Shown here: in pieces, positions 1-55,017 of the stretch
How positions within the stretch are numbered: the stretch's first letter is position 1
Layout: every line of letters begins with the position of its first letter
Source of the DNA: Planctomycetota bacterium
GTDB lineage: Bacteria > Planctomycetota > B15-G4
NCBI GenBank assembly: GCA_038212275.1
Contig: JBBQUR010000002.1
Coordinates: 222,823-286,822, forward strand
DNA: 64,000 nucleotides
Direction of reading: 5' to 3'
Notes under the pieces: model-generated
The model's database searches: none
What the model was told of the DNA's origin: nothing
What the model saw: the letters and a program-made list of their open reading frames with translations, nothing else
Translations under genes and position numbers: made by a program

Positions 1-303
1 GTCTTCGATGCCGAGCTTGCTGGCGGCTTCCTTTGCCTCGGGCGACGCGAGGCGCGCGAAGGCCTTGCTGTGATCCGTGCCTTCCCACTGGGCGAACTGG
101 TCGCCGCCCGCCTCGGACTTGTGGCAGTTCTTGCACTTGGCGGCGCCGATGTACTTGTTGGCACCCGCCGCGCTGGCGCCAGGAACGGCCGCGCGCACCG
201 GCACGGGATCCAGGGATCCGGCAGCAACGAGACCGAGGGCACACGCGGCGACGACGAGTCCGCTCCAGAGGCTTGAAGACAAACCGAGGCACTTCACGCG
301 CAT
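1..303 (-). CDS. Cytochrome c554-family multiheme cytochrome c, N-terminal part (runs off the window edge)
   Basis: Manual translation from ATG 303 (AGGAGG RBS): MRVKCLGL...signal peptide...NKYIGAAKCKNCHKSEAGGDQFAQW...HSKAF. YIGAxxCxxCH..QxxxW..H is typical of c554-type N-termini. The frame is open to base 1. Confidence 0.8.
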   Translation of the reverse strand, partial: MRVKCLGLSSSLWSGLVVAACALGLVAAGSLDPVPVRAAVPGASAAGANKYIGAAKCKNCHKSEAGGDQFAQWEGTDHSKAFARLASPEAKEAASKLGIED

Positions 304-382
304 CTCCTCCTGAACAGGGCCATTCGATTCCCGGCGCAGTCTGTCCCGAAGGTGGGCGCAGCCGCGCAGGGAGAAATATTCC

Positions 383-398
383 GCAACCCTCGTGCCAA
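383..398 (-). promoter_or_regulatory. sigma54 (RpoN) -24/-12 promoter for the c554-like gene
   Basis: Minus strand TTGGCACGAGGGTTGC, a near-perfect TGGCAC-N5-TTGC with GG-N10-GC spacing, about 80 bp upstream of ATG 303. Confidence 0.8.
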
Positions 399-416
399 CT
401 GCGGAGACCGCGAGCT

Positions 417-1325
417 TCAGTCCGGCGGAAGCGATTCGCCAGCCGACGCGACGCCTGTGTCGGGCCACGCCGGGAAATATCCCGCGGCTGCCGCTGCATT
501 CTCATTGCCGCGGAGCGCCGCGCGGACGGCGGCCGCCCAATCGTCGTCCGCTTCGGCGGCCAGATCGGCGCCAAGCCGCCGGAGCTGCGGGGGCGTGCCG
601 AACTGCGCGACCGTTGCCGCGGCCCGGCGCCGCAGGTCGGGCGGGATCTCGCGAGCGCTCACGCACTCCGCAAGCAGCGCCACGGCGGCCGGCTCCCGTG
701 CGCCACGTGTCGCGAGGTCACTCAGCGCAAACTCGGGCAGCGACGCGTGTCCGGTGACGCGCGCATCCGGATCCGGCGGCAGGCGCAAGGCATGTGCAAA
801 CCAGGTCCCCGCCTCGGGCGAGCCGGTGTCCCGGAGCGCACGCAGCAACGCGACGCGCTCGGCGTCGGCATGACCGGGTGCGAAGACCGACGGAGCCAGC
901 TCGGCAAGTCCGCCCCCAGGCTGTCCGGCGATGACGACGAAGTGCTGATAGAGCGCGCGCTCGCTCCCCGGCCGGGGCTGCCTCGGGAACTCGGCCTGAT
1001 CGGAATCCGCAGGCCCGCTCGCCGCCGCGGGCCACGGCGCCTCGGCGTTCGGCTCGAGCGCAACGGCCTGCAGCGCCTCCGCGGCGACGGAGCCTGCACG
1101 GCGGTTCGCCATCGACGCCGCATCCGGCACATCCGGCACATCTGATGAAGGCATCGCGGCGCTCGAGACCGCCTGGCCCGACGCCTCCACTGCGGCCGGC
1201 GGACGCTGCGGTCCGGCGTCCGCCATCACCAGCGCGATGACCGCGGCGACCGTCGCCAGCACGGCAACGGTCGCTGCAAGCATCGCTCCCCGCGTGCCGG
1301 GTGCCCTGTGGGATGCCGTGTTCAC
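417..1325 (-). CDS. Hypothetical membrane-anchored, helical (HEAT-like) protein co-transcribed with the MtrC-like cytochrome
   Basis: GTG start with GGAGG RBS 10 bp after the decaheme stop; N-terminal hydrophobic segment; Ala/Leu-rich helical body; no CxxCH. Confidence 0.6.
   Translation of the reverse strand: MNTASHRAPGTRGAMLAATVAVLATVAAVIALVMADAGPQRPPAAVEASGQAVSSAAMPSSDVPDVPDAASMANRRAGSVAAEALQAVALEPNAEAPWPAAASGPADSDQAEFPRQPRPGSERALYQHFVVIAGQPGGGLAELAPSVFAPGHADAERVALLRALRDTGSPEAGTWFAHALRLPPDPDARVTGHASLPEFALSDLATRGAREPAAVALLAECVSAREIPPDLRRRAAATVAQFGTPPQLRRLGADLAAEADDDWAAAVRAALRGNENAAAAAGYFPAWPDTGVASAGESLPPD
471..504. promoter_or_regulatory. Conserved 34-bp upstream element, copy 1 (candidate enhancer/UAS)
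   Basis: CGGGAAATATCCCGCGGCTGCCGCTGCATTCTCA matches 5166-5199 at 27/34 positions without gaps; about 75 bp upstream of the sigma54 motif at 383-398. Confidence 0.55.
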
Positions 1326-1335
1326 GCACCTCCCG

Positions 1336-4300
1336 TCAACGCGGCTTGTGGACCAGCTCCACGGCGACTTCCTTGCCCTCGCCGTGGCAAAGGGCGCACG
1401 CCTCGGCGCCCGACAACGTCGTCTGCGTCTCGATATGCACCGTGGTCAGGTCGTCGTCGTGGCACGCACTGCAGACCGAGGCCCATTCATGCACTTCCGG
1501 CGTCTGGCCGCCGACGCCGGGGTAGTCGCGATCCGCGGGGCCCTGCCACAGCGTGTTCTCGGTGCCGTGGCACTTGGTGCAGTTCATCGTGCCGCCGGGG
1601 AAGGCCGGGAACTCGACCTCGTCGTACATCGAGGCGGCGCCGCCGAATCCGATCACCTGGTAGGTGCTGGCATTGGCCAGCTCCGCGCCTCGGTGAATCT
1701 TGTGAAGCATCGTGCGGAAATCGATGGTCACGCCGGTCGACGGAGGCGCCGACGTGGTGTCGTACTGCGCCTTGTCCTCGCCGCCCGAGACGCTGTGGCA
1801 GAGCAGGCAGGACTCCACGCCGCGCCGGCCGCCGCCGTGGAACTGCGTGTCGTTGTGGCACGCGTTGCAGTTGGCGGTGGACGAGATGATCTCGTGCGGC
1901 ATCACCTCCGTGGCCGTGGCGCCGTACAGGAAGTTGAAGTCGACCGCGTTCGAGGTGCTCCGGTAGGTCTGCACCTCGCCCTGCAGGGCGACCTGCAGAT
2001 TCTGCGAGAACCACAGCGAGACGACGCAGGTGCCGTCCACGTAGGGCCTGCCGACCCATTCGCCCCACTCCGGACCCAGCGTGTCGGAGTCATTGGGCGG
2101 CGGCTGGTAGAGAGTCTGCAGCGTGTCGCCCGCGTGCCTGCGGTAGCCGAAGACGCCGTCGGTGCGGTAGGTCAGCACGACGCCGTTGCTGTTGGCGGCG
2201 AAGGGCACGACCGACGTGATCGTGCCGTTGGCGGCGTTCAGCGTGTACTGATTGCCGGCGCCCTCCTGCCGGAAGGTCAGCGTGGCCTTGCCCACCGCCG
2301 CGCCGCTGGCGTGTGCGTAACGCACCGGCGACTTGAACCACATGCGCGTCGCGCTCTCGACCCATCCCAGCTGCAGATACTCGCGGGTGCCCAGACCTGC
2401 TGCGCTGTCGAGCACGACGTAGGTCGTCGAGGCGGTCGTGTAGCCAGCCGTGGACGCGACGTCCACGTAGCGCGCGAACGGCGCGACATCGGCACTGAGC
2501 GTCGTCGGGTTGGCCACGGCCGTCACTTCGGAGAGCGCCTGCCGCCCGAAGTAGACGGGCAGGTTGCCCGCCGTGAAAGTCTGCCCGACCATGCCGTTGC
2601 CATCGCCGAGGTACTCGGTCGTGAACTCCATCGGGAACGCGATCGTGTAGCTGGACGCGTCCGGCACGAACTCGTAGTAGATGCGGTCGGGCGTCGGGAG
2701 CGTGCCCGTGAAGGCCGTACGCCCCGCGATGATCCCGAAGAGCACCTGGCTCGCCGGGCCACCGAGGAGCCCCGACACGCCCGTCTCGAAGACCGTCACG
2801 TAGATGGTGTTGCCCGCGGCGAAGGCCGTGCTGCCCGCCGCGACGAGGAACGCGACGGTGCCGTCATCGGAGGTGAAGGCGTTGCTGCCGCTCACCGTGC
2901 TGGGAAGCGTGCCGGAGCCCATGGCCCCGGTCACGGAGCCCGTGACCGTGAAGGCCTGGGGTCCGGAGAAGGTCACGGCGAGGTTCTGAGTCACGGCGTC
3001 GCTGCGGAGAATGAGCGCGGAGAGCGACGAACCGTTCGGGTTTGTGCTCTTGCCGTCCACCGGCTGCAGCGCGCCGCTGCCGAGGCTGCCGCTCACCGTG
3101 CCCGTGACGGTGAACGCCGTGGCCGAGCTGAACTCCACCGTCAGCGTCTCGGCCACCGCAGGGCCGGACGCGACGACCTTGCTCATCGCGCCCTTGCCCG
3201 ACGCGCTCGCGGCCTGCAGGCGGCCCGCGAAGTCGTACGGGCTGAGGCTGACGTTGCTCGTCCCGGTGTACGGCATCATGACCTGCTGGTTGTTCGTCGG
3301 GCCGAGGAGCAACGACACCGAGGCGTCCATCGCGGTCAGGCCGACGGGGTCGCCCTGCTCGGTGCCGAGGCTGAAGACGAGACGGGGCGTGTCGCCCGCC
3401 TGAAACCTGCCGCCGGCTCCGGTGCCACCCACGACGTCCGTGATGTCCACGTCGATGCCCGCACTGATTGCCGGATCTTCGAGCGGATGGGCGTGACCGT
3501 CCACGACGGCAAGCGAGTCGCCCTCCGTGGCGTGGCACACGTTGCAGGAGCTGCTCGGATTGGCCGGCATGATGTCCTGATTGGCTGCATAGGGCCGGTT
3601 CCAGTCGATGTCGTCGTGGCAACTTCCGCACGAGGCGCGGCCCGGCTGCGACTTGTAGAGATCGCCCTGAGCGGGGGCCTGCAGTTCGCCGCTCCCATCC
3701 GGATCGCCGTGGCACTTCAGGCACGTGGTGGCGCCGGCGCGGATCGCGTCCTCCTGGGCCTTCTGGCCCGAGGTCAGCGCCGAGTAGCCGTAGTCCTTCG
3801 GGACATTCGACGTGAGGTTCGGCCAGACCGGGAAGCGGACGAACGAGAAGTCGTTCACGCTGTTCATGAAGCCGACCACCTCATAGGGCGCCGGAGTCGC
3901 GTCATAGTTGCGCGTCCCGTCTTCGTTCGTCGCCACGCCGTTCACCGACGGCAGGTGGTTGGCGTTGTGCAGCTTGTGGATCATCACCCTGAAGTCGATC
4001 GACACTCCGGGCGTGCCGTCCGCCGCCGTCGCCACGTTCTTGTCCTCGGCGCCGGCCGTGTGACACAGGAGGCAGAGCTTCGCCTCGCGGCGCAGGCCGC
4101 CGTGCGCCTGCAGCGACACGTGGCACTGGTTGCAGTTCTCGGTGCTCACGACGTCGCGCGAGGCGATCGCCGGTGTCGTGCCGAGCAGGAAGTCCTTCGT
4201 GGCGTTGCCGACATCGCGGTAGATGGCGCCATCGACGGTGTAGGTCCAGGCCGTGTACATGCCGACGGTGTAGGTGCCACCCAGCAGCGACTCGCCGGCC

Positions 4301-4857
4301 AGCTCGCCGTCCGCGGCCCCGAAGGACGCGCTGTCATTGAGCGGCGGCAGGTAAGCCTCCGGGATCGGCGTCGCGAAGGTGTACTTGTAGGTGGCCACCC
4401 CCACTTTCACCGAGGCTGTCGCCAGGTCGGACTTCTCCGCGAGCACCCGCTGATAGTTGAAGGAAGGGCCCGACATCATGATGCGCGCGGTGCCCATCTC
4501 GGCCAGGCCCCACGAGGAGCCATCGTTCTTCTTGAGCGTGAAGGTGACCGACAGCTTGTCGCCCGGAGCGAAGTGATCGGAGTTCGGCTTGGCCGCCGAC
4601 GCGCTCGGCGCCGCGGCGGACGGCAGTGAACCGCCGGACAGCTCGATGATCTGCAGTTGCACGCCCGGCGCGTCTTCTGCCGGCAGCAGCTGGGTGTCCT
4701 CCGGCGTCGGCTCGGCCGAACTGCCGCCCGATCCGCCGCCGCCGCCGCCGCTGCCGCCACCGCAACCGGCGAGCAGCCCCGCCGTGCAGAACACCACGGC
4801 CATGAACTGCGCGGGGACCGAGATTCGGAAGAAGGAGGGCAAGGCGCTGAACTTCAT
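1336..4857 (-). CDS. MtrC/OmcA-like decaheme c-type cytochrome lipoprotein, 1173 aa
   Basis: Likely start ATG 4857 (AGAGGA RBS); lipobox LLAGC; 10 CxxCH in two blocks of five (CNQCH, CLLCH, CLKCH, CGSCH, CNVCH / CNACH, CLLCH, CTKCH, CSACH, CALCH); IDFRxMxHKxH motifs after hemes 2 and 7, as in the OmcA/MtrC family. Confidence 0.85.
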   Translation of the reverse strand: MKFSALPSFFRISVPAQFMAVVFCTAGLLAGCGGGSGGGGGGSGGSSAEPTPEDTQLLPAEDAPGVQLQIIELSGGSLPSAAAPSASAAKPNSDHFAPGDKLSVTFTLKKNDGSSWGLAEMGTARIMMSGPSFNYQRVLAEKSDLATASVKVGVATYKYTFATPIPEAYLPPLNDSASFGAADGELAGESLLGGTYTVGMYTAWTYTVDGAIYRDVGNATKDFLLGTTPAIASRDVVSTENCNQCHVSLQAHGGLRREAKLCLLCHTAGAEDKNVATAADGTPGVSIDFRVMIHKLHNANHLPSVNGVATNEDGTRNYDATPAPYEVVGFMNSVNDFSFVRFPVWPNLTSNVPKDYGYSALTSGQKAQEDAIRAGATTCLKCHGDPDGSGELQAPAQGDLYKSQPGRASCGSCHDDIDWNRPYAANQDIMPANPSSSCNVCHATEGDSLAVVDGHAHPLEDPAISAGIDVDITDVVGGTGAGGRFQAGDTPRLVFSLGTEQGDPVGLTAMDASVSLLLGPTNNQQVMMPYTGTSNVSLSPYDFAGRLQAASASGKGAMSKVVASGPAVAETLTVEFSSATAFTVTGTVSGSLGSGALQPVDGKSTNPNGSSLSALILRSDAVTQNLAVTFSGPQAFTVTGSVTGAMGSGTLPSTVSGSNAFTSDDGTVAFLVAAGSTAFAAGNTIYVTVFETGVSGLLGGPASQVLFGIIAGRTAFTGTLPTPDRIYYEFVPDASSYTIAFPMEFTTEYLGDGNGMVGQTFTAGNLPVYFGRQALSEVTAVANPTTLSADVAPFARYVDVASTAGYTTASTTYVVLDSAAGLGTREYLQLGWVESATRMWFKSPVRYAHASGAAVGKATLTFRQEGAGNQYTLNAANGTITSVVPFAANSNGVVLTYRTDGVFGYRRHAGDTLQTLYQPPPNDSDTLGPEWGEWVGRPYVDGTCVVSLWFSQNLQVALQGEVQTYRSTSNAVDFNFLYGATATEVMPHEIISSTANCNACHNDTQFHGGGRRGVESCLLCHSVSGGEDKAQYDTTSAPPSTGVTIDFRTMLHKIHRGAELANASTYQVIGFGGAASMYDEVEFPAFPGGTMNCTKCHGTENTLWQGPADRDYPGVGGQTPEVHEWASVCSACHDDDLTTVHIETQTTLSGAEACALCHGEGKEVAVELVHKPR

Positions 4858-4944
4858 GATCCGAGATCCTCTTGTCCTGAAACCGGGTTGAAGGCGGAGT
4901 GCTCTCACAGGAAGCCGAAGGCACGCCCCTCGCGGACTGCTTGA

Positions 4945-4960
4945 GCAATTGGCGTGCCGT
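4945..4960 (-). promoter_or_regulatory. sigma54 -24/-12 promoter for the MtrC-like gene
   Basis: Minus strand ACGGCACGCCAATTGC (GG-N10-GC, GGCAC..TTGC), about 90 bp upstream of ATG 4857. Confidence 0.75.
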
Positions 4961-5165
4961 TCGCTCAATGGAAATGAGCCTTGAATCGCCGGGGCGCACG
5001 CGTTCGGGAGCCTACTCGACATGTCGCGGCCAAACTTTTCCCACTCGCGGCAGCCTCGTCGCCTCGGAACGGAAGCGTGCGCATGCGACTCACGGCAGAG
5101 GCCTGCCTGCCCCCTGCCGACGCGTGCAGCAGCAACTCGGTCATGTCGCCGGCGCTGAGGCGTCC

Positions 5166-5199
5166 CGGGGAAAATCCCGCTGTCGTCACTGCATTCTCA
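5166..5199. promoter_or_regulatory. Conserved 34-bp upstream element, copy 2
   Basis: CGGGGAAAATCCCGCTGTCGTCACTGCATTCTCA; intergenic; 27/34 identical to 471-504. Confidence 0.55.
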
Positions 5200-5230
5200 G
5201 CTGCGGCTTCACTCGGCGCGGCCGCCTCGC

Positions 5231-5303
5231 TGGTGGCATGCCTCACTGGTGGCATGCCTCACTTGTGGCAGCCCTCACTTGTGGCAGCCCTCACTTGTGG
5301 CAG
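5231..5303. repeat. 16-bp tandem repeat, about 4.5 copies, derived from the 3' end of the 13-heme gene
   Basis: TGGTGGCATGCCTCAC x2, TTGTGGCAGCCCTCAC x2, then TTGTGGCAG. On the minus strand each unit contains TGC CAC (A/C)AG TGA (C-H-K/Q-stop). Confidence 0.9.
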
Positions 5304-6331
5304 AAGGTGCAGTCGTCGCCGTTGTCCACGTGCGGCAACGGAGCGGAGATGCCGTGACAGGCCCGGCAATCCATGCCCGGGAAGTGGTTGGGCGGCTGGT
5401 CGGTGGCATCCAGGTGACTGGGCGTGCTCTTGTGGCACACCGAGCAGCTCTCGCTTTGCAGCGGGTAGTGACATGCCATGCAGTGCGTGTCCTGAGGAGC
5501 GCCCCACGCGCCGCTGTTGTGACTCAGCGGCGGAGTGTCGTTGTGGCAACGCACGCAGGAGGACGGTTCGTGGCAGGTCCTGCACGAGTCGCGATCCATG
5601 TCGGCGACGACGCCGTGGCCGCGCAGTCTCCAGAAGTTGTTGTGACTGGCCGGCGGCTGGTCCTGGTGGCACTTGATGCAGGTCTGGTCCGTGTGGCAGA
5701 GGGTGCAGTCGTTCGCGGGCCCCTCGAAATCGCCGCGCACCGCAACGCCGTGTGTCGTCATCCACTGCTGACTGTGATTCGGGGGCATCGTGTCCGTGTT
5801 GATCAGGCTGTGGCAGACCGTGCACGAGGTGTCCTGGCCGACGCTCTGATGGCAGCGGATGCAGTCGTCCATGCGCGGCGACACGGAGGGATCCACGAAG
5901 TCGTTGGTGAGGATCGGCTCGTGGCACGCTTCGCAGGAGGCGCCCGCGCCGACGTGCGTCGCGTGCGAGAACTTCACCTCGTCCGCCAGCGCCGAGGCGC
6001 GGGTCGCGCGGTAGGCATCGCCGTCGAAGAGCGAGGCCACCTGCCGGTCCGGCTCCTTCCCGGCATCCAGCTCCTCGTGGCACAGCGCGCACTGGGCCGG
6101 CTTCACGTCCTGGACGACGTCGCCGTCCTCGTACGCGGAGTGGCAGTCGCTGCAGCTCAGGCCTTCCTCGAGGTGCCGTTCGTGGCTGAAGGCAAGCGGC
6201 TTGTCGCTCAGGCCCAGATACTGCAGCACCGCGCAGCCGGTGATCGCGAGCACGGCCAGGGAGAGAAGCCTGGCCAACCTGCCGCGCGAACCCGGTCGAC
6301 GCCCATCCGTGAGTCTGTCTAGAAGCGCCAT
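5291..6331 (-). CDS. 13-heme c-type cytochrome lipoprotein (c3/c7-like N-terminus), 346 aa
   Basis: Start ATG 6331 overlaps the porin stop; lipobox AITGC; 13 CxxCH counted; two FSH..H..CxxCH class III motifs followed by repeated PPxH..W...H..CxxCH..CxxCH modules. Confidence 0.9.
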   Translation of the reverse strand: MALLDRLTDGRRPGSRGRLARLLSLAVLAITGCAVLQYLGLSDKPLAFSHERHLEEGLSCSDCHSAYEDGDVVQDVKPAQCALCHEELDAGKEPDRQVASLFDGDAYRATRASALADEVKFSHATHVGAGASCEACHEPILTNDFVDPSVSPRMDDCIRCHQSVGQDTSCTVCHSLINTDTMPPNHSQQWMTTHGVAVRGDFEGPANDCTLCHTDQTCIKCHQDQPPASHNNFWRLRGHGVVADMDRDSCRTCHEPSSCVRCHNDTPPLSHNSGAWGAPQDTHCMACHYPLQSESCSVCHKSTPSHLDATDQPPNHFPGMDCRACHGISAPLPHVDNGDDCTFCHK

Positions 6332-7860
6332 GTTGCCTTCGCCGTGAGGGTGTCGAAGTTGTCCACGTCGCTCACTTCGTGATCGATGCCGAGCGACCAC
6401 GTGAGCGTCTTGTCCACGAGATACCGCATCGTCAGGTAGTAGTCGCGCACGTCCTGGCGATCCTCGTTGAGCAGGAAGTCGTTCTTGTACAGCGCGTAGA
6501 ACGAACCGAGCGACATCCGGACGGCCTTGGTCCACTTCCGCGTGAGGTCGACGCCCCACGTCGCGTATTCGGTGTTGTCGTTGCCGTCCCAGAGCTCGCC
6601 GGTCACCGAGAAGTCCAGGTCTTTCGTGACGAAGTCGTGCGTCGTCTCCGTGAGGAAGTAGCGCGTGAACTCGTGGTTGAAGTCGCCCTCGTCGTCGCTG
6701 TTCTTCAGCTTCCGGCCGTCCAGTCCGGCGGTCACGTCGTAGCCGGCTTCGAAGGATTTGCTGGCCAGCACGCGCGCCTGACGGAAGGGTTCGTACTGCG
6801 TCAGCGTGGCGTAGTAAGGATCGAATTCCTCGACCAGGAACTCCTGCGTGCGAAGCAGCTCGTGATACCAGAAGTTCACCAGCCAGCCGGACTCGGGGCG
6901 CACCCACGTCGCGCGCAGATCGAGATCGCGCGGCTTCTCCTCGAGCACGGAGTAGGCGCCTTCCACGTGCACCTCCTTGCCGAACTGCTGGCCGAGTCGC
7001 GCGGCGTAAAGGTCGTTGTTCTCCGAACCCAGCTGCGACTCGCCCTGCTGCACGCCGTTCTCGATGTGCAGCGCGTCGAGGCGCAGCTTGCCGCCCTCCC
7101 ACGGCCGCACCTTGAAGTAACCGCCGACCACCTTGTTGCCCGACGACGACGACTCGTACTCGTAGTCGGACTGACCGAGGTAGGCGCCGTATTGCTGCCG
7201 CGCCGAGCCATCCGGCGCGGTCTCGATGGCCACGCCGTCGAAGCGCACGTACTCGGGCGTGTCGTCGAGCTGCTGGCGGCCGATGCGCAACAGGCTGAAG
7301 CCGTTCTCGTGGAAGTCCGCGTACGCCTCGTACAGGTTGGAGTGCACGGAGTTGGAGTAGGTGTCCTCCAGACCGCCGTACAGGTCCTGGTTGCTGTTCT
7401 TGTCGAGGTCCCACGCGGCCCGGGCCAGCACGTAGCCGGTCACCTCATCCTTGGCCGCGTCACCGATGCTCGTCTCGAGCAGACCGTAGATGTCCGTGTC
7501 GTGCGTGCCGCCCGTGGTCCTTTCCACGAAGCGCAGCCCGAACGATCCGTGCACCACGCCGCTCTCATCGATCTCGCCTTCCTTGCCATCGTCCGTGGTC
7601 GCGCCCGCGGCGGCAGATCCGTACGGCGAGGCAGCGCCGGCAGGAGTTGTTCCCGGCGCGCCCTCGTCCACGGAGACCACGGCACCTTCGCTCCATGCTG
7701 CGGTGTCGCCCGTCTCGCCGGCGCCCGCTGCGCCTTGAGCAGGACTGCCGCCGGCCGGGCCGGCACAACCCGCCATCAGCGAGGCGGACGCCACGCCGGC
7801 AGCCAGTGCAAGGAGGAGGCCGTAGCCCCTGGGTGCCGATGATTCGCCGTGTCTGTCCAC
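6319..7860 (-). CDS. Outer-membrane beta-barrel (porin of a porin-cytochrome complex)
   Basis: Lipobox LMAGC, low-complexity linker, then alternating amphipathic strands rich in Y/F/W/D; C-terminal KATWRF (BamA-type terminal Phe); directly upstream of and overlapping the multiheme gene. Confidence 0.8.
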   Translation of the reverse strand: MDRHGESSAPRGYGLLLALAAGVASASLMAGCAGPAGGSPAQGAAGAGETGDTAAWSEGAVVSVDEGAPGTTPAGAASPYGSAAAGATTDDGKEGEIDESGVVHGSFGLRFVERTTGGTHDTDIYGLLETSIGDAAKDEVTGYVLARAAWDLDKNSNQDLYGGLEDTYSNSVHSNLYEAYADFHENGFSLLRIGRQQLDDTPEYVRFDGVAIETAPDGSARQQYGAYLGQSDYEYESSSSGNKVVGGYFKVRPWEGGKLRLDALHIENGVQQGESQLGSENNDLYAARLGQQFGKEVHVEGAYSVLEEKPRDLDLRATWVRPESGWLVNFWYHELLRTQEFLVEEFDPYYATLTQYEPFRQARVLASKSFEAGYDVTAGLDGRKLKNSDDEGDFNHEFTRYFLTETTHDFVTKDLDFSVTGELWDGNDNTEYATWGVDLTRKWTKAVRMSLGSFYALYKNDFLLNEDRQDVRDYYLTMRYLVDKTLTWSLGIDHEVSDVDNFDTLTAKATWRF

Positions 7861-7911
7861 TGTATTGCCCTGTGTCCCAGACTTCGGGAAGCGTGTCCGG
7901 GCGCCTCTGTC

Positions 7912-7927
7912 GCAACTGTCATGCCGG
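7912..7927 (-). promoter_or_regulatory. sigma54 -24/-12 promoter for the porin/13-heme operon
   Basis: Minus strand CCGGCATGACAGTTGC (GG-N10-GC), about 50 bp upstream of GTG 7860. Confidence 0.7.
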
Positions 7928-8038
7928 TGTCACGCGCGCGAAGGACCTGCGCTTCCGGTGCACTTGCGGGGCCCCCGAAGCGGCACCTGGTCCCGCGAAT
8001 GCGCCCTCCGGCCGCTGCTCCACCGCTCGGATCGCGAA

Positions 8039-8521
8039 CTATTCCGCATCTCCTCTGGTGAACTCCACGCCGCGAGGCGGCGTCTCCGCGTGTCGAGTGA
8101 ATCGGGAGTGATCTGCTCCTGACTCCCGAACCGCGGAGCCCGCACGCACCACCTTCACCTGCTGGCCGCAGAGCTCGTCCATGAGGCGCTCGAGCGCCGC
8201 GTCCTCGAACTCGTCCCAGCCCTTGCAGAGGTCGCGCTCGAGCAGCTGCGTGTCGCAACACAGCTCGGCCCCGAAGCGCCGCTTCCGCTCGACCAGCCAG
8301 GCGTTGGCGAGCGCCTCGAATTCCGCACGCGGGAGCTCGGGATGCCTCAGCGACAACCACCAGAAGCGCCGCTTGAGATCGGCGTAGCTCCACCGGGCAA
8401 AGCCGTGGCAGAGCGTGCCGGTGCGTGCGGCAACCTCGCAGAGGCAGTGCTTGTCATCCACCTGTTCCGCGAGACGCGGGCGCAGAAGGTCGATGGCTTG
8501 CTCACGCGTGATGGTCTTCAT
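8039..8521 (-). CDS. Cys-rich hypothetical protein, 160 aa
   Basis: ATG 8521 with GAGG RBS: MKTITREQAIDLL...CLCEVAAR..LCHGF...CCDTQ..LCKGWDEF. 7 Cys, no signal peptide. Confidence 0.7.
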   Translation of the reverse strand: MKTITREQAIDLLRPRLAEQVDDKHCLCEVAARTGTLCHGFARWSYADLKRRFWWLSLRHPELPRAEFEALANAWLVERKRRFGAELCCDTQLLERDLCKGWDEFEDAALERLMDELCGQQVKVVRAGSAVRESGADHSRFTRHAETPPRGVEFTRGDAE

Positions 8522-8600
8522 GGCGCTACCTCGGGCGATCGAGGGGAGTGAGGGTGATCGGATGCCACGGCAGCAGCCGATGCCAGCTGTCCCGAAGCAA

Positions 8601-10202: not shown

Positions 10203-11048
10203 TCAGCGCGGCGCGGCCGCTTTCTCAGCGTCGCCGGCCGCGGGCGCAACACCACCCGTGACGCTGTTCCCGCCGACGCCGTCGGAGCCGTCCGCCGCGC
10301 GCGGCTTGGCCGGCTGCTCTTCGCCGCCGGACGCGTCGCTGGCCTTGTCCGTCGCCCTGTCCTCCACGCTGGCCTTGGCGTTCTTCTCGCGCAGCAGCTC
10401 GATGAGCTGCGCCGGGCTCTTGCCGGACAGCACTTCCTGGAACTGCGATCGGAAGTTCTGGACGAGGCTCACGTTCTCGATGGTGATGTCGATGATCTGC
10501 CACGCGCCGGTGTCCTTGTTCGCGCGCAGGCGGTAGTCGATGAGCGTGTCGCCCTGCTCCTTGGAGATCACCTTGGAGCGCACCGTCCAGTCGCCCTTGC
10601 CCTCGTCGCGCGAGTCGTAGATCTCGATCGTCGAGAACTTGGCCCCCTCCGCGTTGCGGTAGTAGGTGGCGATGAGGTGTTCGCGGAACTGCTTGCGGAA
10701 CTCGGCCTGCTCCTCGGTCGTGAACTTGCCGTAGTTCTTGGCGAGCACGAGCTTGGACACGACCATCATGTCGAGGCGGTTGTCCACGATGTCGACGATG
10801 CGCTCGCGCCGCGCGTGGCTGTCGAGGGTCGGATCCTTCAGCAGCGCGATGACCTTGTCGGCCGTGTCCTGGATGACCGCACGCGCACCGTCGGAGGGCG
10901 CCGTCTGCGCGGCGAGGGGCTGCGCGGCCGGCACCATCGCCGCGGCGGTCCGGGCAAGGCACGGCGAGGCCAGCACCGCGACGAGCAGCGCGGCGGCGGG
11001 CAGGATGCGGACGGCGGACGCGAGTTTCGTGTCAGGGTCGGGGTGCAT
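10203..11048 (-). CDS. mlaC: Phospholipid-binding periplasmic protein MlaC/ttg2D
   Basis: Signal peptide; VL.K.Y..FT.EEQAEF, DYRLR, WQIIDITIENVSLVQNFRSQF; last gene of the mla operon. Confidence 0.9.
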   Translation of the reverse strand: MHPDPDTKLASAVRILPAAALLVAVLASPCLARTAAAMVPAAQPLAAQTAPSDGARAVIQDTADKVIALLKDPTLDSHARRERIVDIVDNRLDMMVVSKLVLAKNYGKFTTEEQAEFRKQFREHLIATYYRNAEGAKFSTIEIYDSRDEGKGDWTVRSKVISKEQGDTLIDYRLRANKDTGAWQIIDITIENVSLVQNFRSQFQEVLSGKSPAQLIELLREKNAKASVEDRATDKASDASGGEEQPAKPRAADGSDGVGGNSVTGGVAPAAGDAEKAAAPR

Positions 11049-11838
11049 CGTCGGGCTCCGTAGCCAGGTCTTCGTCGTAGAAATCTTCATTAGCCTGCTG
11101 GGTTGCGGCCGGCTGCTGCGCCATCTCGCCCTCGATCGCGATGCGGCGACGCTGCAGGTAGGCGTTGCGCACGAACACGTAGTAGTCGAGCGAGGCCAGC
11201 CGCGCCTCGCGCAGCGGCTGGAGCAGCTGCGCGCGCGTGTTGACCACATCCACGACGCGTGAGCCGATCAGGACCGCGTCGTCCACGTCCCACACGGCGT
11301 TGTACGTCACGACGTCACCGACGAGGCCGGCCGTGTCGCGCGGACTGGACGGACCGAACAGCGGCAGCACGAGGTAGGGCCCCGAAGACACGCCCCACAC
11401 CGCGAGGGTCTGGCCGAAGTCCTCGGGCCGCTCGATCAGGCCCATGTCCTTCGCCGGGTCGAAGAAGCCCACGATGCCCAGCGTGGTGTTGACCACGAAC
11501 CGCAGCGTCTCGGTGCCGGCGTCCTCGAACTTGGCCTGCAGGAGGTTGTTGAGCACGTGCACGGGCGCCGCGGCATTGGTGAAGAAGTCGTCCACCGAGC
11601 GCTGCACGCGCGGCGTCGTGATCTCGTTCCAGCCGCGCGCCGTCGGCTCGAGCACGTAGTCGTCGAGCTGCTCGTTGAACCAGAACACCTTCCGGTTCAT
11701 GCCTTCCCACGGGTCGGCCTCGCTCGTGGTGCCCGGCGCGGCGCACCCGACGAGCGGCAGCGCAGCGACGCACGGCAGCAGCAGCATGCGCGACGCACGC
11801 GACAGGCGCGCCGCCAGCCCACGTTCGCGAAGGCTCAC
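11032..11838 (-). CDS. mlaA: MlaA/VacJ lipoprotein
   Basis: Lipobox LVGC; DPWEGMNRKVFWFN, EDFGQTLAVWGV..GPYLVLPLFGPSSPRD. Confidence 0.92.
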   Translation of the reverse strand: MSLRERGLAARLSRASRMLLLPCVAALPLVGCAAPGTTSEADPWEGMNRKVFWFNEQLDDYVLEPTARGWNEITTPRVQRSVDDFFTNAAAPVHVLNNLLQAKFEDAGTETLRFVVNTTLGIVGFFDPAKDMGLIERPEDFGQTLAVWGVSSGPYLVLPLFGPSSPRDTAGLVGDVVTYNAVWDVDDAVLIGSRVVDVVNTRAQLLQPLREARLASLDYYVFVRNAYLQRRRIAIEGEMAQQPAATQQANEDFYDEDLATEPDDAPRP

Positions 11839-12296
11839 TTCTCGTCTCCCACCGACGTGTTGTGGATCAACTTGCCGATGAGACGTTCGAGCAGCACCGC
11901 GGACTCCGTGAACGGGATCTTGTCGCCGTTCTGCAGGAAGTCCTCTTCGCCGCCGAGCTGCAGCAGCAGGTAGCGGTCGCCGAGGATGCCCGAGGTCATG
12001 ATGGAGGCGCTGCTGTCCGACGGGTACTTGCGCCCGGCGTCCACGTCGAGCTCCACGCGGGCGCGACCTTCCTCATCCAGCGTGATGGAGCGCACCTCGC
12101 CCACCTTCACGCCGGAGATCTCCACCGGCGCGCGCACCTTGAGGCCGCCGATCTCGTCGAAGCCCGCATAGAGAGTGAGCTGCGGCGGCCGGCTGAGGCT
12201 GACGCCGCCGACCTGCAGGGTGAGGTAGGCGATGGCGGCGAGGCCGACCAGCACGAACAGGCCGACGACGAAGTCGCGCAGCGGAGAGCGTTCCAT
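11835..12296 (-). CDS. mlaD: MCE-domain protein MlaD
   Basis: DFVVGLFVL, FDEIGGLKVRAPVEISGVKVGEV, TSGILGDRYL. Confidence 0.93.
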   Translation of the reverse strand: MERSPLRDFVVGLFVLVGLAAIAYLTLQVGGVSLSRPPQLTLYAGFDEIGGLKVRAPVEISGVKVGEVRSITLDEEGRARVELDVDAGRKYPSDSSASIMTSGILGDRYLLLQLGGEEDFLQNGDKIPFTESAVLLERLIGKLIHNTSVGDEK

Positions 12297-12299
12297 GGG

Positions 12300-13073
12300 T
12301 CAGATTCCCCAGAGGGCCGTGACGATGTAGTCGAGCAGAAGCACGGTGACGGACGCCGTGACCACCGTCGAGGTGGTGGCCGCGCTGACGCCGGCCGAGT
12401 TGGGTTTCGAGGTGAAGCCGCGCCACGTGGAGATGAGGCCCACGACGACGCCGAAGACGACCGCCTTCACCAGGCTTCCGACCACGTCTTCGTGAAAGTC
12501 CACGTTGGCGTAGAGATTGCTCATGTAGCGGCCGCCGTCGACACCCATGAGCGACACGCCGACGAGATAACCGCCGCCCATGCCGCACGTGATGAAAAGC
12601 GCGGACAGCAGCGGCATGACGACGATCATCGCCAGCAGGCGCGGCACGACGACGAAGCTCATCGGGTTCACGGCCATCATGCGCAGGCCGTCGAGCTGCT
12701 CGGTGGCCACCATCGTGCCGATCTCCGCGGTCGTCGCGGAACCCGCGCGTCCTGTCGCGAGCAGCGCGGTGAGCACCGGCCCCAGCTCGCGCAGCAGCGA
12801 GATGCCGACGACCGCGCCGAGCGAGTCCGTCGCGCCGAAGCGCTGCAGCGTGTTGTAGCCCTGCAGCGCGAGCACGGCGCCCACCGCCGCGCCGCTGACG
12901 CAGATGATCACCAGCGAGAGCACGCCCAGCTTGTAGAGCTCGTCGAAGAAGACGCCCATGCGGAACGGCGGCCGCAGGGCCTGCAGCATCGCGCTGCCGG
13001 AGAACGCCGTGAAGCGTCCGAGCTGCTCCACGAAGTTCAGCGCCGAAAAGCCGAGGTTCTGGATCGCCTTCAT
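12300..13073 (-). CDS. mlaE: MlaE permease
   Basis: RELGPVLTALL.GRAGSA.TAEIGTM..TEQLDGL..M; start placed at MKAIQ. Confidence 0.93.
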   Translation of the reverse strand: MKAIQNLGFSALNFVEQLGRFTAFSGSAMLQALRPPFRMGVFFDELYKLGVLSLVIICVSGAAVGAVLALQGYNTLQRFGATDSLGAVVGISLLRELGPVLTALLATGRAGSATTAEIGTMVATEQLDGLRMMAVNPMSFVVVPRLLAMIVVMPLLSALFITCGMGGGYLVGVSLMGVDGGRYMSNLYANVDFHEDVVGSLVKAVVFGVVVGLISTWRGFTSKPNSAGVSAATTSTVVTASVTVLLLDYIVTALWGI

Positions 13074-13080
13074 CGCGCGC

Positions 13081-13896
13081 TCAACCTTCCACACCCTTGG
13101 CGGTGAGTACGGCCTCGTCCACGTCCGCACTGATGAGGTTGGCGACGAGCGGGTCCTTGCTCGCGCGCAACTCCGACGGCGTGCCCTGGACGGCGGCCTT
13201 GCGCACCAGCACGAGCACGTGGTCGGCCATGCGCAGCGTGGACGGGACGTCGTGCGAGATCACGATCATGGTCACGCCCAGCGAGCGGTTGAGATCCTTG
13301 AGCAGGTTCTCGATGCGGCGCGCCGAGATCGTGTCGAGGCCCGAGAAGGGCTCGTCGCAGAGCAGGTATTGCGGGTCGCGGATGATCGCGCGGGCCAGCG
13401 CCACGCGCTTGAGCATGCCTCCCGAGAGCTGGCCAGGCAGCAGCCGGTCCTCGTCCGCCGACAGCCCGACGGCGGTCAGCTTGGCGTGCACGCGTTCGCG
13501 GATCTCCGCCTCGCTCAGCCGGGTGTGCTCGCGCAGCGGAAAGGCAAGGTTGTCGTACACCGAGAACGAGTCGAGCAGCGCGCCGGCCTGGAACATCATC
13601 CCGATCTGCTCGCGCACCGCGTACAGGCCGCGCTCGGCGAGGGTGGTGAGTTCCTTGTCGCCGACGCGCACATGCCCGGCCCTGGGGTGCAGCAGGCCGC
13701 CGATGAGCCGCAGCAGCGTGCTCTTGCCGGAGCCGCTGCCGCCGAGGATCACGGAGATCTGCCCGGCGGGGAAGCGGCACGTCAGGTCATCGAAGATGAC
13801 GCGGCTTCCGAAGGCCATGCGCACGTGGTCGAACGCGACCTCGCCGCCCCGCCCTCGTTGCGCCACCTGCGCGCCGTCCTGACCGTTCGCCGACAT
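13081..13896 (-). CDS. mlaF: ABC ATPase MlaF
   Basis: Walker A GGSGSGKS, LSGGMLKRVALARA, CDEPFSGLD; first gene of the operon. An alternative start at 13914 is possible. Confidence 0.92.
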   Translation of the reverse strand: MSANGQDGAQVAQRGRGGEVAFDHVRMAFGSRVIFDDLTCRFPAGQISVILGGSGSGKSTLLRLIGGLLHPRAGHVRVGDKELTTLAERGLYAVREQIGMMFQAGALLDSFSVYDNLAFPLREHTRLSEAEIRERVHAKLTAVGLSADEDRLLPGQLSGGMLKRVALARAIIRDPQYLLCDEPFSGLDTISARRIENLLKDLNRSLGVTMIVISHDVPSTLRMADHVLVLVRKAAVQGTPSELRASKDPLVANLISADVDEAVLTAKGVEG

Positions 13897-14001
13897 GCCT
13901 GCTCGTCGCTCCAAGATCGAAGGCGACGGTTATAACGTCGCGCGACCCGTCCGCACGAGCGTGGCGGCGGCATGTCGGCGACCTGTCAGCCAGGCGCCCC
14001 C

Positions 14002-15699
14002 TCAGCGGGGCTTGACGAGCACCACGCGCGTGTCGGCCGCCACGGCGTGCGTGCTGGCCGTGCCGTCCGGCCAGCGGACCGAAACGACGGCCGACGCCGC
14101 CGTCGCGCCAAGGCCGAACCACAGGCTCTGGGGCGCCTGGCTCAGATAGTTGTTGCCGCACTCCATCGGCGCGACCTGCACGGGAAGCCCGGCGACCTGC
14201 ACGCTGACCCGGGCCCCCACCGCCAGGCGGTTCATCCCGGGCTGGCGCAGCTCGACGTGCAACCAGTGACCGAGCCCCGCGTTGCTGCCGCGCCAGAGCC
14301 GCGGGCCGACGTCGTTGTTCATGACGAGCACGTCGAGTGCGCCATCGTGGTCGGCGTCGAAGACCACGAGTCCGCGCCCCTGGCTGTCGTCGACCAGTCC
14401 GAAGTCGGCGGCGCGATCCGTGAAGTGGCCCGCGCCGTCGTTCATGAACAGGCGCAGCGTGTCATGGTCGAAGATCAGCAGCTGCGGCACGAAGATGATG
14501 TTGCTGTACCAGCCGTTCGCCTGCACCAGGTCCACGTCGCCGTCGTTGTCCAGGTCCGCGAACTGCGCGCCCCAGCCCCAGCCGCCGTGGCGCAGCCCGG
14601 CGACGTCCGTCTTGTCGGTGAAGGTTCCGTTGCCGTTGTTCACGTAGAGGCGGTTGCCGGAGCTGAAGTAGCCGCCGAGCGGGATGGGCACGGGCGAGTC
14701 GATGGCGGTCACGAACCAGTCGAGGTCGCCGTCGCGGTCCACGTCGGCGATGGCGCTGCCCATGCCGTTCTCATCCGTGCCCACACCGGCGAGCTGCGTG
14801 ATGTTGGTGAAGCTCCAGTTGCCGTTGTTGCGCAGCAGCCGGCTCGTGTGCACGTCGTTCGCGCACAACACGTCGAGGTCGCCGTCGAAGTCGAAGTCCA
14901 CGAGGCGCGGCGTGAAGCCGTACACCTTGTCGAACTTGAACTGCGGCAGGTGGACCTCGCGGAAGCTGCCGTCGCCCGTGTTGCGGAAGAACTGGATGCG
15001 ATGGCCGCCCCAGGTGAGCGCCACGAGGTCGAGGTCGCCGTCGGCGTCGAGGTCTCCGAAGGCAGCGCCGTAGCGCCCCGCGGTGGCCAGGCCGTTGGCA
15101 TCCGGCGCCTTGCTGAACAGGCCGTGCCCGTCGTTCAGATACAGGCGGTTGTCGTGCTTGAGCAGCCCGGGTCCGGAGGGCGGGTCCGAGACGTCCGGCG
15201 TGGGGATCGGCCCCGTGCTGCTTCCGCCGCCTTTCATGGCGGTCTGCACGTCGAGCACGTTCTCGAACATGGTGAGGAAGAGGTCCAGGTCGCCGTCGCC
15301 ATCTACGTCGGCGAGCACTGGCGAGCCGACCGGCAGGCTCACCGCGACTCCCGCGGCGGCGGCCACGTCCGTGAAGTGCCCGCCGCCGTCGTTGTGGTAG
15401 AGGCGCAGCGGTTGCGCGGAGCCCATCGGCACGACGAGGTCCTCCCAGCCGTCGCCGTCCACGTCGCCGACGGCGATGCCGCCCGTGAAAGGTTGCGTGA
15501 CCGCATCGGTCGGCGACGCGGCGTACGCGCCAGCAATGCCCGCGACCGCCGTGGCCTCCGTGAAGGACTGCGCGGAGGCCGTGGCGACGAGCGACAACGC
15601 AACCAACGCCAGCATCGCCAGCATCGCCAGCAACAACGGCAGCTTCCGTTGCGACACGCGCACCAGCGCGCCGCGGGACGCGAACTCGGAAGCATGCAT
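14002..15699 (-). CDS. CRTAC1/ASPIC-UnbV FG-GAP repeat secreted protein
   Basis: Signal peptide ending ASAQ; repeated GDxDGDGDLDL motifs; C-terminal NRLAVGARV..ECGNNYLSQ...FGLG (ASPIC/UnbV). Confidence 0.88.
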   Translation of the reverse strand: MHASEFASRGALVRVSQRKLPLLLAMLAMLALVALSLVATASAQSFTEATAVAGIAGAYAASPTDAVTQPFTGGIAVGDVDGDGWEDLVVPMGSAQPLRLYHNDGGGHFTDVAAAAGVAVSLPVGSPVLADVDGDGDLDLFLTMFENVLDVQTAMKGGGSSTGPIPTPDVSDPPSGPGLLKHDNRLYLNDGHGLFSKAPDANGLATAGRYGAAFGDLDADGDLDLVALTWGGHRIQFFRNTGDGSFREVHLPQFKFDKVYGFTPRLVDFDFDGDLDVLCANDVHTSRLLRNNGNWSFTNITQLAGVGTDENGMGSAIADVDRDGDLDWFVTAIDSPVPIPLGGYFSSGNRLYVNNGNGTFTDKTDVAGLRHGGWGWGAQFADLDNDGDVDLVQANGWYSNIIFVPQLLIFDHDTLRLFMNDGAGHFTDRAADFGLVDDSQGRGLVVFDADHDGALDVLVMNNDVGPRLWRGSNAGLGHWLHVELRQPGMNRLAVGARVSVQVAGLPVQVAPMECGNNYLSQAPQSLWFGLGATAASAVVSVRWPDGTASTHAVAADTRVVLVKPR

Positions 15700-15802
15700 G
15701 GTCGAGACTCCACCAGGACGCGATGACGACGAGCCGACGGCTCGCGCTTGCCGGCCGCGGATTGCCGGCGACCATCCCCCAGACCGGCGGGCCGTGCCGG
15801 GC

Positions 15803-15850
15803 GTCACGCCCGACGTCACGCCCGACGTCAGGCCCCGTGTCACGCCGGGC
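15803..15850. repeat. 12-bp tandem repeat x4, intergenic
   Basis: GTCACGCCCGAC GTCACGCCCGAC GTCAGGCCCCGT GTCACGCCGGGC. Confidence 0.8.
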
Positions 15851-15875
15851 AGCAAGCCCGACGTGGCGCCCGCCT

Positions 15876-16076
15876 TCACGCGGCGGGCGACGGGCTGCGC
15901 TCGCCGTCCGTGCGCACGACGACCGTGCCGGCGATGCAGTCCGGCAGCGAGCGGCCGTTCTTGCCGTGGAACATCGTGACGAGCTCCGCCACGATCCACA
16001 GCGTCGCGATCCAGCTCAGCCCGATGCGCTCGAGCACGCGCTCGTCCGCGGCGGAGCGTGCCTGTCCTGCGCTCAT
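15876..16076 (-). pseudogene. RDD-family remnant, C-terminal part only, 66 aa
   Basis: ATGA-coupled to the upstream gene; WIVAELVTMF..GRSLPDCIAGTVVVR resembles the RDD C-terminal R.LHD..AGTVVV motif, but the N-terminal RDD helices are absent. Confidence 0.6.
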
Positions 16077-53890: not shown

Positions 53891-54115
53891 GCCTGTCTTG
53901 GACGACCTCCGTGCGCCGGGTGTTCCCGAAGCCCCGCGGGCCCGGATGTCCGGCGCCCACGGCCACGATAGCAGGGCGTCGAGGCCGGGCAGCCGGTCGT
54001 CGCCGGGAGCGGCCGGCGCCGACAGGTGCACGGCCTCGCTCCACGCCCTCGCTCCAAGCCCTCGCCCGAAAGCTGCGGTGAACCTCCGGGGGCCGTCGCC
54101 TATGATCCGCGGCCG

Positions 54116-54985: not shown

Positions 54986-55017
54986 GCGCACGTGTTCCTC
55001 GACCTCCGGAGACGGTC

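Follow-up and report, generated by a model that had tools for sequence, protein, structure and literature searches.

The 64,000-nucleotide stretch of DNA analyzed here (the window; contig JBBQUR010000002.1 of assembly GCA_038212275.1, from a Planctomycetota bacterium) contains at its left end a cluster of five genes for a barrel protein, or "porin," a c-type cytochrome with 13 hemes, a decaheme cytochrome of the OmcA/MtrC family, a protein that matches no known family, and a c554-like cytochrome. All five genes are on the minus strand and are transcribed in this order. On balance, and by no wide measure, we favor the interpretation that the cluster encodes a trans-outer-membrane porin-cytochrome conduit, in which a core of the porin-cytochrome (Pcc) type is capped by a surface decaheme of the Mtr type and through which electrons would flow outward.

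Porin-cytochrome conduits are the only well-understood route by which the respiratory electrons of diderm bacteria cross the outer membrane, and what is known of their mechanism comes mainly from Shewanella and less from Geobacter. An earlier note, made from the letters of this DNA alone, had listed the same five co-oriented genes and proposed that they form a conduit with a Geobacter-like gene order and porin size, a Shewanella-like terminal cytochrome, and an inner cytochrome other than MtrA. The five genes were all confirmed, and the interpretation is supported as a hypothesis. It can now be sharpened in three respects: the core resembles Pcc systems more than Mtr systems, Planctomycetota carry the module widely and in conserved form, and what is seen here is only part of a longer pathway.

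Results

The 13-Heme Cytochrome

The second protein of the cluster was found to contain exactly 13 CXXCH motifs, an AITGC lipobox, and a total of 26 histidine residues. With approximately 313 residues in the mature chain, this amounts to roughly 24 amino acids per heme. The 13 histidines outside the heme motifs are invariant across seven homologues. Because these 13 putative distal ligands are invariant and the window protein has exactly 26 histidines, bis-His ligation is probable for every heme, each serving electron transfer, and no catalytic site is obvious. The heme number is fixed at exactly 13 CXXCH motifs in 119 of 120 homologues, and a lipobox is found in 111 of the 116 that are full length. 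The family comprises at least 472 clusters at 90% identity.

A profile search of the PDB demonstrated that the N-terminal half of the protein (residues 40–213) is homologous to ActA, the pentaheme subunit of Alternative Complex III (E values from 5e-23 to 1e-18); the same residues also match c7-type trihemes. The possibility that the protein is MtrA/DmsE was rejected. It scored 23.9 bits with TIGR03508, for which the cutoff is 192.2, it has 13 hemes and not ten, and the MtrA chain (6r2q_A) was absent from the PDB profile search even at E ≤ 10. The earlier description of a non-MtrA inner cytochrome is thus borne out. We propose, from these sequence features, that the 13-heme lipoprotein is the heme wire inside the barrel.

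The Barrel Protein

The barrel protein begins with a signal peptide (...LLLALAAGVASASLMAGC) that carries an LMAGC lipobox. This is followed by a disordered linker of about 70 residues and a plug-less β-barrel of 22 strands (residues 103–512), and the C-terminal end is WRF. In the AlphaFold2 model, built from an alignment of 48 sequences, the mean predicted local distance difference test (pLDDT) score is 78.8, most of the barrel blocks exceed 90, and 22 strands are formed. Residues 31–95, ahead of the barrel, are modeled as disordered (pLDDT < 50); their sequence is rich in Ala, Gly, and Pro and is not a plug. A previous model from four sequences was unusable (pLDDT of 45.6) and was superseded by the 48-sequence model. 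The C-terminal residue is aromatic in 45 of the 48 relatives. The lipoboxes that the earlier note saw on the porin, the 13-heme protein, and the decaheme are all present, but that of the porin is not family-wide: it occurs in about half of the 48 relatives, the others having ordinary signal peptides. The lipobox of the 13-heme cytochrome, by comparison, is nearly universal.

No Pfam or NCBIfam family matched the barrel protein. PF11854 (MtrB_PioB) found none of the 48 family members at E ≤ 1 and likewise did not find the window protein; Porin_4 gave weak matches in nine of the 48. When the model was compared with the PDB using Foldseek, only generic barrels were returned, with template modeling scores of 0.25–0.47 (AlgE and FimD are examples), and MtrB was not in the top 50 matches. 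Two identities were considered and rejected. The barrel is not MtrB, since there is no PF11854 match and it has 22 strands in 513 residues versus 26 strands in about 700 residues (6R2Q); the size is Geobacter-like, as had been proposed. Nor is it a TonB-dependent receptor, since it has no plug and matches neither TonB_dep_Rec nor any other Pfam or NCBIfam model, and no assignment to a substrate-porin family was obtained. The outcome that the earlier note had named as refuting its proposal, a TonB-dependent or other substrate porin, therefore did not arise. Judged by these comparisons, the protein is a member of an unnamed family distinct from MtrB/PioB.

This family is large. When 1.84 billion proteins were searched with a profile from four sequences, 707 representative clusters (at 50% identity) were retrieved, and the E value was 1e-30 or lower for 364 of these; the best 150 matches were itemized. 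A word-index search had returned four proteins only, and the idea that the gene is extremely rare was rejected on the result of the exhaustive profile search. The low count probably arose from the low-complexity N-terminus, which filled the candidate list. Rarity estimates from indexed word searches are unreliable for proteins with long N-termini of low complexity.

The standard geometry for 22 strands, with an assumed shear number of 24, gives a Cα radius of about 20 Å, versus about 23.5 Å for 26 strands; these values are estimates and were not measured on the model. TonB-dependent receptors also have 22 strands, and their lumen holds a plug of about 150 residues. By this analogy, it is plausible that there is room for a slim heme wire inside the barrel.

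The Decaheme Cytochrome

The decaheme protein scored 254.6 bits with TIGR03507 (OmcA/MtrC), above the cutoff of 209.3, and PF22113 was matched twice (147.5 bits). Its sole sequence match in the PDB is MtrF (3pmq), with an E value of 3e-8 when the protein was searched alone and of 7.6e-24 when a profile of five sequences was used. By these measures it is a real member of the OmcA/MtrC family, in agreement with the earlier call of a Shewanella-like terminal cytochrome. An LLAGC lipobox and a Gly/Ser tether are at the N-terminus. The CXXCH motifs are arranged as five (residues 242, 262, 379, 410, and 438) plus five (997, 1017, 1093, 1129, and 1154), with a gap of 555 amino acids from heme 5 to heme 6. 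The protein is longer than its relatives (957–1146 amino acids), and the compact four-domain size of about 650–750 amino acids is not seen. In the Shewanella proteins, the Cys pair of domain III, which forms a disulfide, gates flavin binding (PMC4486940, PMC9973256). Neither this pair nor a conserved CX8C motif is present here; the sole non-heme cysteine past the lipobox, C944, is not conserved in four homologues. We propose that the decaheme is the terminal cytochrome at the cell surface.

The Unknown Protein and the c554-like Cytochrome

The 302-residue protein encoded between the decaheme and c554-like genes consists of a single N-terminal hydrophobic helix and an Ala/Arg-rich remainder, and no match was found for it in the family searches. 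It is weakly similar (36% over 86 amino acids) to the protein at the same position in the related locus L005, and a similar gene occupies this position in at least ten relatives (L005, L006, L007, L009, L014, L018, L038, L040, L046, and L075). Judged by position, it is a conserved partner between the two cytochrome genes.

The 102 visible residues of the c554-like protein scored 24.5 bits with PF13435 (cutoff of 20.8) and are 48% identical to the tetraheme of L005, which has 236 residues, an ordinary signal peptide, and the same position. The relatives of this protein are tetrahemes of 236–237 amino acids with ordinary signal peptides; those of L005 and L006 have four CXXCH motifs. Of the family models that the earlier note had named as checks, OmcA/MtrC and c554 were thus matched above their cutoffs, and MtrB_PioB and MtrA/DmsE were not. 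Most of the computational checks suggested there favored the interpretation.

Conservation of the Cluster in Relatives

Related loci (designated L) were collected by individual look-ups and by a metagenome scan with a profile of the 13-heme cytochrome (80 loci), giving about 85 in all. Every locus was annotated using tblastn before features were counted, and the 17 loci with long flanks were used for the counts of pathway genes.

The barrel gene was found directly upstream of the 13-heme gene in 44 of the 46 loci with enough upstream sequence, and in one of the two exceptions (L001) the match is broken by a frameshift. In 33 of 49 loci, the next gene downstream of the 13-heme gene is MtrC-like, and six more loci have such a gene at another place. 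The order barrel, inner cytochrome, outer cytochrome, which the earlier note had called Geobacter-like, is that of the Pcc systems and is conserved across dozens of loci that share only 30–45% identity. The surface partner appears to be interchangeable, as judged from the genes that take its place. In L070 (3764–5338) and L071 (11084–13825), a different protein with six or seven hemes, not MtrC-like, follows the 13-heme gene, and in L086 an 8-heme gene (11997–14117) comes after the 13-heme gene and ahead of an MtrC-like gene that lies farther away.

Closest to the cluster in the window are L002 and L009 (78% DNA identity), L006, and L014; the identity to a contig of the Planctomycetota metagenome-assembled genome (MAG) GCA_035489175.1 is 78% in DNA. 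Past the c554-like gene, L006, L009, and L014 continue with a gene for a 683-residue protein, followed in L006 (17687–21531) and L014 (8890–12629) by genes for a Rieske protein and a b6-like cytochrome b. In L006, this protein combines 11 CXXCH motifs with an FdnI-like domain (TIGR01583, E of 1e-6) and about five transmembrane helices, which is the architecture described for the Geobacter quinol oxidase CbcL (PMC6295460). In L007 (17534–21626) and L038 (11472–15417), ResB/CcsA maturation genes instead precede Rieske/cytochrome b. Among the 17 long loci, an MtrC-like decaheme is encoded in 16, a c554-like cytochrome in 11, Rieske plus cytochrome b in six, and a σ54 activator response regulator in four. 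Since the window ends inside the c554-like gene and longer relatives go on to genes of the CbcL and Rieske/cytochrome b kinds, it is very probable that more of the system lies past the left edge of the window.

Every homologue with an organism name is from a MAG of Planctomycetota, Planctomycetes, or Planctomycetaceae, and none is from a cultured strain; the planctomycete origin suspected in the earlier note is therefore supported. The database annotations are "hypothetical protein" or "cytochrome c3 family protein." The relatives come from soils, rhizospheres, sediments, and lakes, with many contigs from soil and rhizosphere. From these records, the family seems to be confined to uncultured Planctomycetota.

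Gene Junctions, Spacer, and Regulation

The 13-heme gene starts before the barrel gene has ended: its ATG falls within the final barrel codons, so that the two genes overlap by 13 nucleotides. Such an overlap was seen in all six loci that were compared. The form of the junction is constant. The cytochrome ATG is embedded in the W-x-F-stop codons of the barrel gene at every junction read, which points to translational coupling of the two genes. Single long open reading frames (ORFs) in L001, L045, and L063 were considered as barrel-cytochrome fusions, and this was rejected because the barrel stops in another frame that overlaps the start of the cytochrome. In L001 (Planctomycetota MAG CAWGKH01), the barrel and cytochrome looked like one ORF of 976 residues because of a frameshift near the C-terminus of the barrel (at about 11250–11290), which is either an assembly error or the mark of a pseudogene.

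The 13-heme and decaheme genes are separated by a long non-coding spacer (Table 1). It opens with five tandem copies of a 16-nucleotide sequence at 5224–5303 (GCCTCACTTGTGGCAG, plus strand). The first copy is the true end of the 13-heme gene (...TGC CAC AAG TGA), and the later copies repeat the Cys-His-Lys-stop codons past the stop. This repeat was found in no relative, and the spacer has no second copy in the window or the related loci, so it is not a repeated or mobile element there. The signal-peptide region of the decaheme also differs from that of the 78%-identical relative. Together, the spacer and the altered region suggest a local rearrangement that brought its own σ54-like promoter.

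The full 64 kb was scanned with the σ54 consensus TGGCACG-N4-TTGCW, allowing at most one mismatch. Only two matches were found, at 4944–4959 and 382–397, both within the cluster and on the coding strand. The best match is the one at 382–397, about 80 nucleotides upstream of the ATG of the c554-like gene. It falls within the hairpin at 380–405, an element that is ambiguous between a σ54 promoter and a terminator-like stem-loop. The weaker element upstream of the barrel gene has a nearly identical counterpart at the same place in L002 (CGGCATGACACTTGCA), and L002, L005, L006, and L007 have comparable sites ahead of their barrel or decaheme genes. Response regulators that are σ54 activators flank the cluster in L005, L007, L038, L046, and L086. 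The promoter-like sites and these adjacent activators in relatives suggest that the cluster is under σ54 control through a two-component system. A scan of positions 1–8600 for σ70 promoters found nothing, and an Rfam search of the window gave no match.

Genomic Setting

No multiheme cytochrome is encoded in the 64-kb window outside positions 1–7860, and neither a σ54 activator nor a quinol oxidase was found in the rest of it. The G+C content of the window is about 70%. The neighbors of the conduit are housekeeping genes, among them those for a deoxyhypusine-synthase homologue, a complete Mla system, PriA, FtsK, and RF3, and on this basis the cluster is located in an ordinary chromosomal region of a diderm. 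The Mla operon (homologues of MlaF, E, D, A, and C) is at 10203–13914 on the minus strand, 2.3 kb upstream of the conduit. This system serves outer-membrane lipid asymmetry, and its presence confirms that the envelope is diderm and that its outer membrane is maintained.

Directly upstream of the barrel gene is a Cys-rich ORF of 153 residues. In L018, L020, and L086, homologues with 34–45% identity adjoin the barrel gene on its upstream side, in divergent orientation, and the protein may have an accessory or regulatory role in the conduit. Elsewhere in the window, two large FG-GAP/ASPIC repeat proteins and a choice-of-anchor I protein are encoded at 14002–16545, 58680–60326, and 61251–63107, all on the minus strand; proteins of these types are typically secreted or at the surface. 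An ORF of 976 residues at 52085–55015 gave a T2SS-K match below the threshold.

Table 1. Genes and candidate regulatory elements of the proposed conduit cluster in the window
Feature	Positions	Strand	Remarks
Barrel ("porin") gene	6319-7860	-	513 aa, GTG start
13-heme c-type cytochrome gene	5291-6331	-	346 aa
OmcA/MtrC-family decaheme gene	1336-4857	-	1173 aa from MKFSALP
Unknown-protein gene	417-1325	-	302 aa
c554-like cytochrome gene, 5' part	1-303	-	ATG at 303; gene cut by left edge of window; 102 aa visible
Cys-rich ORF	8039-8500	-	153 aa; directly upstream of barrel gene; no Pfam match
Spacer between 13-heme and decaheme genes	4858-5290	-	433 nt, non-coding; 25-40 nt in close relatives
σ54-type promoter-like element	4944-4959	-	CGGCACGCCAATTGCT; 87 nt upstream of decaheme ATG
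Weaker σ54-like element	7911-7926	-	CGGCATGACAGTTGCG; GG-N10-GC kept; about 50 nt upstream of barrel GTG
Hairpin between unknown and c554-like genes	380-405	-	contains TGGCACGAGGGTTGCG; 9-bp stem, T-rich tail

Discussion

Comparison with Known Systems

The cluster shares with MtrCAB (6R2Q), MtrDEF, and OmcA of Shewanella a three-part logic of a barrel sheath, an inner multiheme wire, and a decaheme lipoprotein at the surface. The surface cytochrome is a true homologue, as indicated by the TIGR03507 score, the two PF22113 pentaheme domains, and the match to MtrF (3pmq). The remaining features differ. The Shewanella gene order is mtrC-A-B, and the order here is barrel, inner cytochrome, outer cytochrome. 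MtrB has 26 strands and about 700 residues, whereas the present barrel has 22 strands and 513 residues and falls outside PF11854. MtrA is a ten-heme protein of TIGR03508; the inner cytochrome here has 13 hemes, is lipidated, and is not a member of TIGR03508. In contrast to the Shewanella decahemes, the 1173-residue protein is without a Cys pair in domain III, and its pentaheme domains are 555 residues apart.

The core of the cluster resembles the Pcc systems of Geobacter sulfurreducens, OmbB-OmaB-OmcB and OmbC-OmaC-OmcC (PMC4282303, PMC4245776). As catalogued by Shi et al. (2014, PMC4245776), Pcc clusters have porins of 18–22 strands, inner cytochromes of 5–14 hemes, and usually an outer lipoprotein cytochrome. 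The present pair lies within these dimensions by its 22 strands and 13 hemes and is a Pcc pair also by the adjacency of the two genes in 44 of 46 loci, with the likeness to OmbB and OmaB drawn from their descriptions. The gene order of porin, periplasmic cytochrome, and outer lipoprotein cytochrome and the small porin of 18–22 strands are common to both, as are variable, swappable outer partners, which in some relatives here are proteins with 6–8 hemes. However, OmaB is a soluble 8-heme protein and the inner cytochrome here is a 13-heme protein with a lipobox, and the outer cytochrome is of the MtrC type, in contrast to the 12-heme OmcB.

The nearest described analogue, going by catalogued sizes, is the set of two-gene Pcc clusters of Candidatus Kuenenia stuttgartiensis and Anaeromyxobacter spp., with cytochromes of 12–14 hemes in 338–344 residues (PMC4245776). 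Compared by description only, their size and heme density are near those of the 346-residue 13-heme protein, and Kuenenia is also a planctomycete. Those clusters are without an outer cytochrome, whereas an MtrC-type decaheme, a c554-like cytochrome, and accessory genes are found here. The homology to ActA of Alternative Complex III (6f0k, 6lod, 6btm, and 8k9e) is confined to residues 40–213. Both proteins are membrane-tethered periplasmic heme chains, but ActA has five (in some cases six) hemes and belongs to an inner-membrane quinol oxidase, and the present protein has eight more hemes and a gene joined to that of an outer-membrane barrel.

A similar kind of finding has been reported for different phyla, Acidobacteriota and Verrucomicrobiota, in which four divergent Mtr-like clusters (EET1–4) were recognized from synteny and modeling; they combine a porin and multihemes, with MtrC- and MtrA-like parts of 8–13 hemes (bioRxiv 10.64898/2026.05.27.727921). 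Planctomycetota are named once in that preprint, for the expression of a sulfite reductase. A preprint on boreal lakes describes Planctomycetota with novel multiheme clusters and no recognizable genes for extracellular electron transfer (EET), and in a study of MAGs from tunnel biofilms a FeGenie "PCC" match is given for one MAG (OFTM248) of a Planctomycetota/KSB1 set. Our literature search found no paper that describes or functionally tests this architecture. The suggestion in the earlier note that the conduit is undescribed stands to that extent, and it has to be qualified by the similar two-gene clusters already catalogued. What sets the cluster apart from every characterized system is its lipidated inner cytochrome with a fixed number of 13 hemes, its barrel family, and its enlarged decaheme, in which the Cys pair is lacking.

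Proposed Function

In the conduit that we favor, the 22-strand barrel would be the sheath in the outer membrane. The 13-heme lipoprotein, with bis-His ligation throughout, would be made in step with the barrel through translational coupling and would run through it as an insulated wire of hemes, held by its lipid in the inner leaflet. A 1:1 complex of the two proteins is suggested by their near-obligate adjacency and the coupling of their genes across distant relatives, which are its signature. The long decaheme of the MtrC/OmcA type would be held on the cell surface by its Gly/Ser tether and would reduce acceptors that are insoluble or macromolecular, for example Fe(III) and Mn(IV) oxides or humic matter. 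On the other side, the c554-like tetraheme would carry electrons across the periplasm from quinol oxidoreductases of the inner membrane. These would be a CbcL-like multiheme/FdnI-type protein and a Rieske/cytochrome b6-type complex, encoded directly downstream in relatives and probably just past the left edge of the window here. Expression would probably be σ54 dependent, under a two-component system.

In reductive EET, CbcL-type proteins act as the quinol oxidases. We infer outward flow from the presence of the MtrC-type surface cytochrome and from the CbcL-like gene in relatives; known oxidative conduits are generally without an MtrC-type surface cytochrome (bioRxiv 10.1101/2022.03.26.485925).

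Several points weigh against this interpretation. By strand count, the barrel is about 15% narrower than MtrB, and its capacity for a chain of 13 hemes is only plausible. The inner cytochrome is lipidated, unlike MtrA or OmaB, and it may lie either at the periplasmic face or at the surface. The number of σ54 matches is by itself not significant: two were found versus 0.71 expected, and two or more occurred in 18 of 100 shuffled sequences. The genes for the CbcL-like protein and for Rieske/cytochrome b are seen in relatives only and not in the window. A Rieske/cytochrome b complex normally delivers electrons at a fairly high potential, and iron oxidizers use such a complex for reverse flow. This context fits inward flow equally well, and outward flow is only the more probable direction.

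It is conceivable, if rather unlikely, that the same conduit runs inward. The electrons would then originate outside the cell, in Fe(II), Mn(II), reduced humics, or a cathode, and would pass to the c554-like cytochrome and on to a terminal oxidase, and through a reversed Rieske/cytochrome b complex to the quinone pool. Such a complex is encoded beside the conduit in six of the 17 long loci, and acidophilic iron oxidizers use the bc1 complex for uphill electron flow. Oxic-anoxic interfaces are common in soil and rhizosphere, from which the contigs of many relatives come, and Mtr-type conduits are reversible (MtoAB and PioAB, cited in PMC4245776). Against this stand the MtrC-like surface decaheme, which characterized oxidative conduits generally lack, the CbcL-like quinol oxidase of the relatives, and the flanks examined, in which no oxidase gene was seen.

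We consider it improbable that the barrel holds no wire at all. It would then be an ordinary channel for diffusion or export, for instance of a soluble metal or metalloid substrate or of the lipoprotein cytochromes, and the cytochromes would be a periplasmic or surface reductase of soluble oxyanions (selenite or tellurite, for instance) or an electron store. The weak Porin_4 matches in nine of the 48 family members, the generic porins and exporters (AlgE, FimD) that are all Foldseek yields, and the lipoprotein nature of both cytochromes are compatible with this, as is the resemblance of the L006 cytochrome b to ExtP of the Geobacter selenite/tellurite operon, at 201 bits and below the cutoff of 290. 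It is harder to reconcile with a barrel whose gene is near-obligately adjacent and translationally coupled to that of one specific 13-heme cytochrome, with the 13 invariant distal histidines and no evident catalytic (non-bis-His) heme site, and with a plug-less barrel of 22 strands, which would be a very large unregulated pore unless filled. That the decaheme gene is a relic, uncoupled or disabled in this genome by the 433-nucleotide insertion with its tandem repeats and by the replaced signal-peptide region, is very improbable, for although the spacer is absent from all close relatives (25–40 nucleotides there) and the relative with 78% identity has a different decaheme N-terminus, no reading frame is broken and G+C at third codon positions is high throughout, the decaheme retains its ten heme sites and its lipobox along with a good signal peptide, and the spacer holds a good σ54-type element at a sensible distance.

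Returning to the outward conduit, a wider proposal can be made, which we hold only tentatively and think somewhat doubtful. The cluster may be the outer-membrane end of a complete, phylum-specific pathway of extracellular respiration in non-anammox, largely soil-dwelling Planctomycetota, in which a Pcc-like barrel and wire were joined to an Mtr-type cap and which would be fed by Rieske/cytochrome b and not only by the quinol oxidases of the CymA, ImcH, or CbcL type that model organisms have.

Implications

Divergent conduits are being reported from new phyla with growing frequency, and the present one should be of interest to the fields of EET and of planctomycete biology. The family is large in both of its core proteins. 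With a narrower barrel, a longer, lipid-anchored wire of 13 hemes, and an enlarged MtrC, the system would provide a test of which features of MtrCAB are essential, and the combination of a Pcc-like core with an Mtr-type cap speaks to modular evolution. The proteins are compact enough for heterologous expression, and the hypothesis is directly testable.

A major phylum would be added to the organisms that respire, or oxidize, iron, manganese, or humic substances. If the wider proposal is true, a lipid-anchored 13-heme wire in a 22-strand barrel would be a structurally new way across the outer membrane, and a large and abundant group that is regarded as aerobic polymer degraders would be found to respire minerals or humics.

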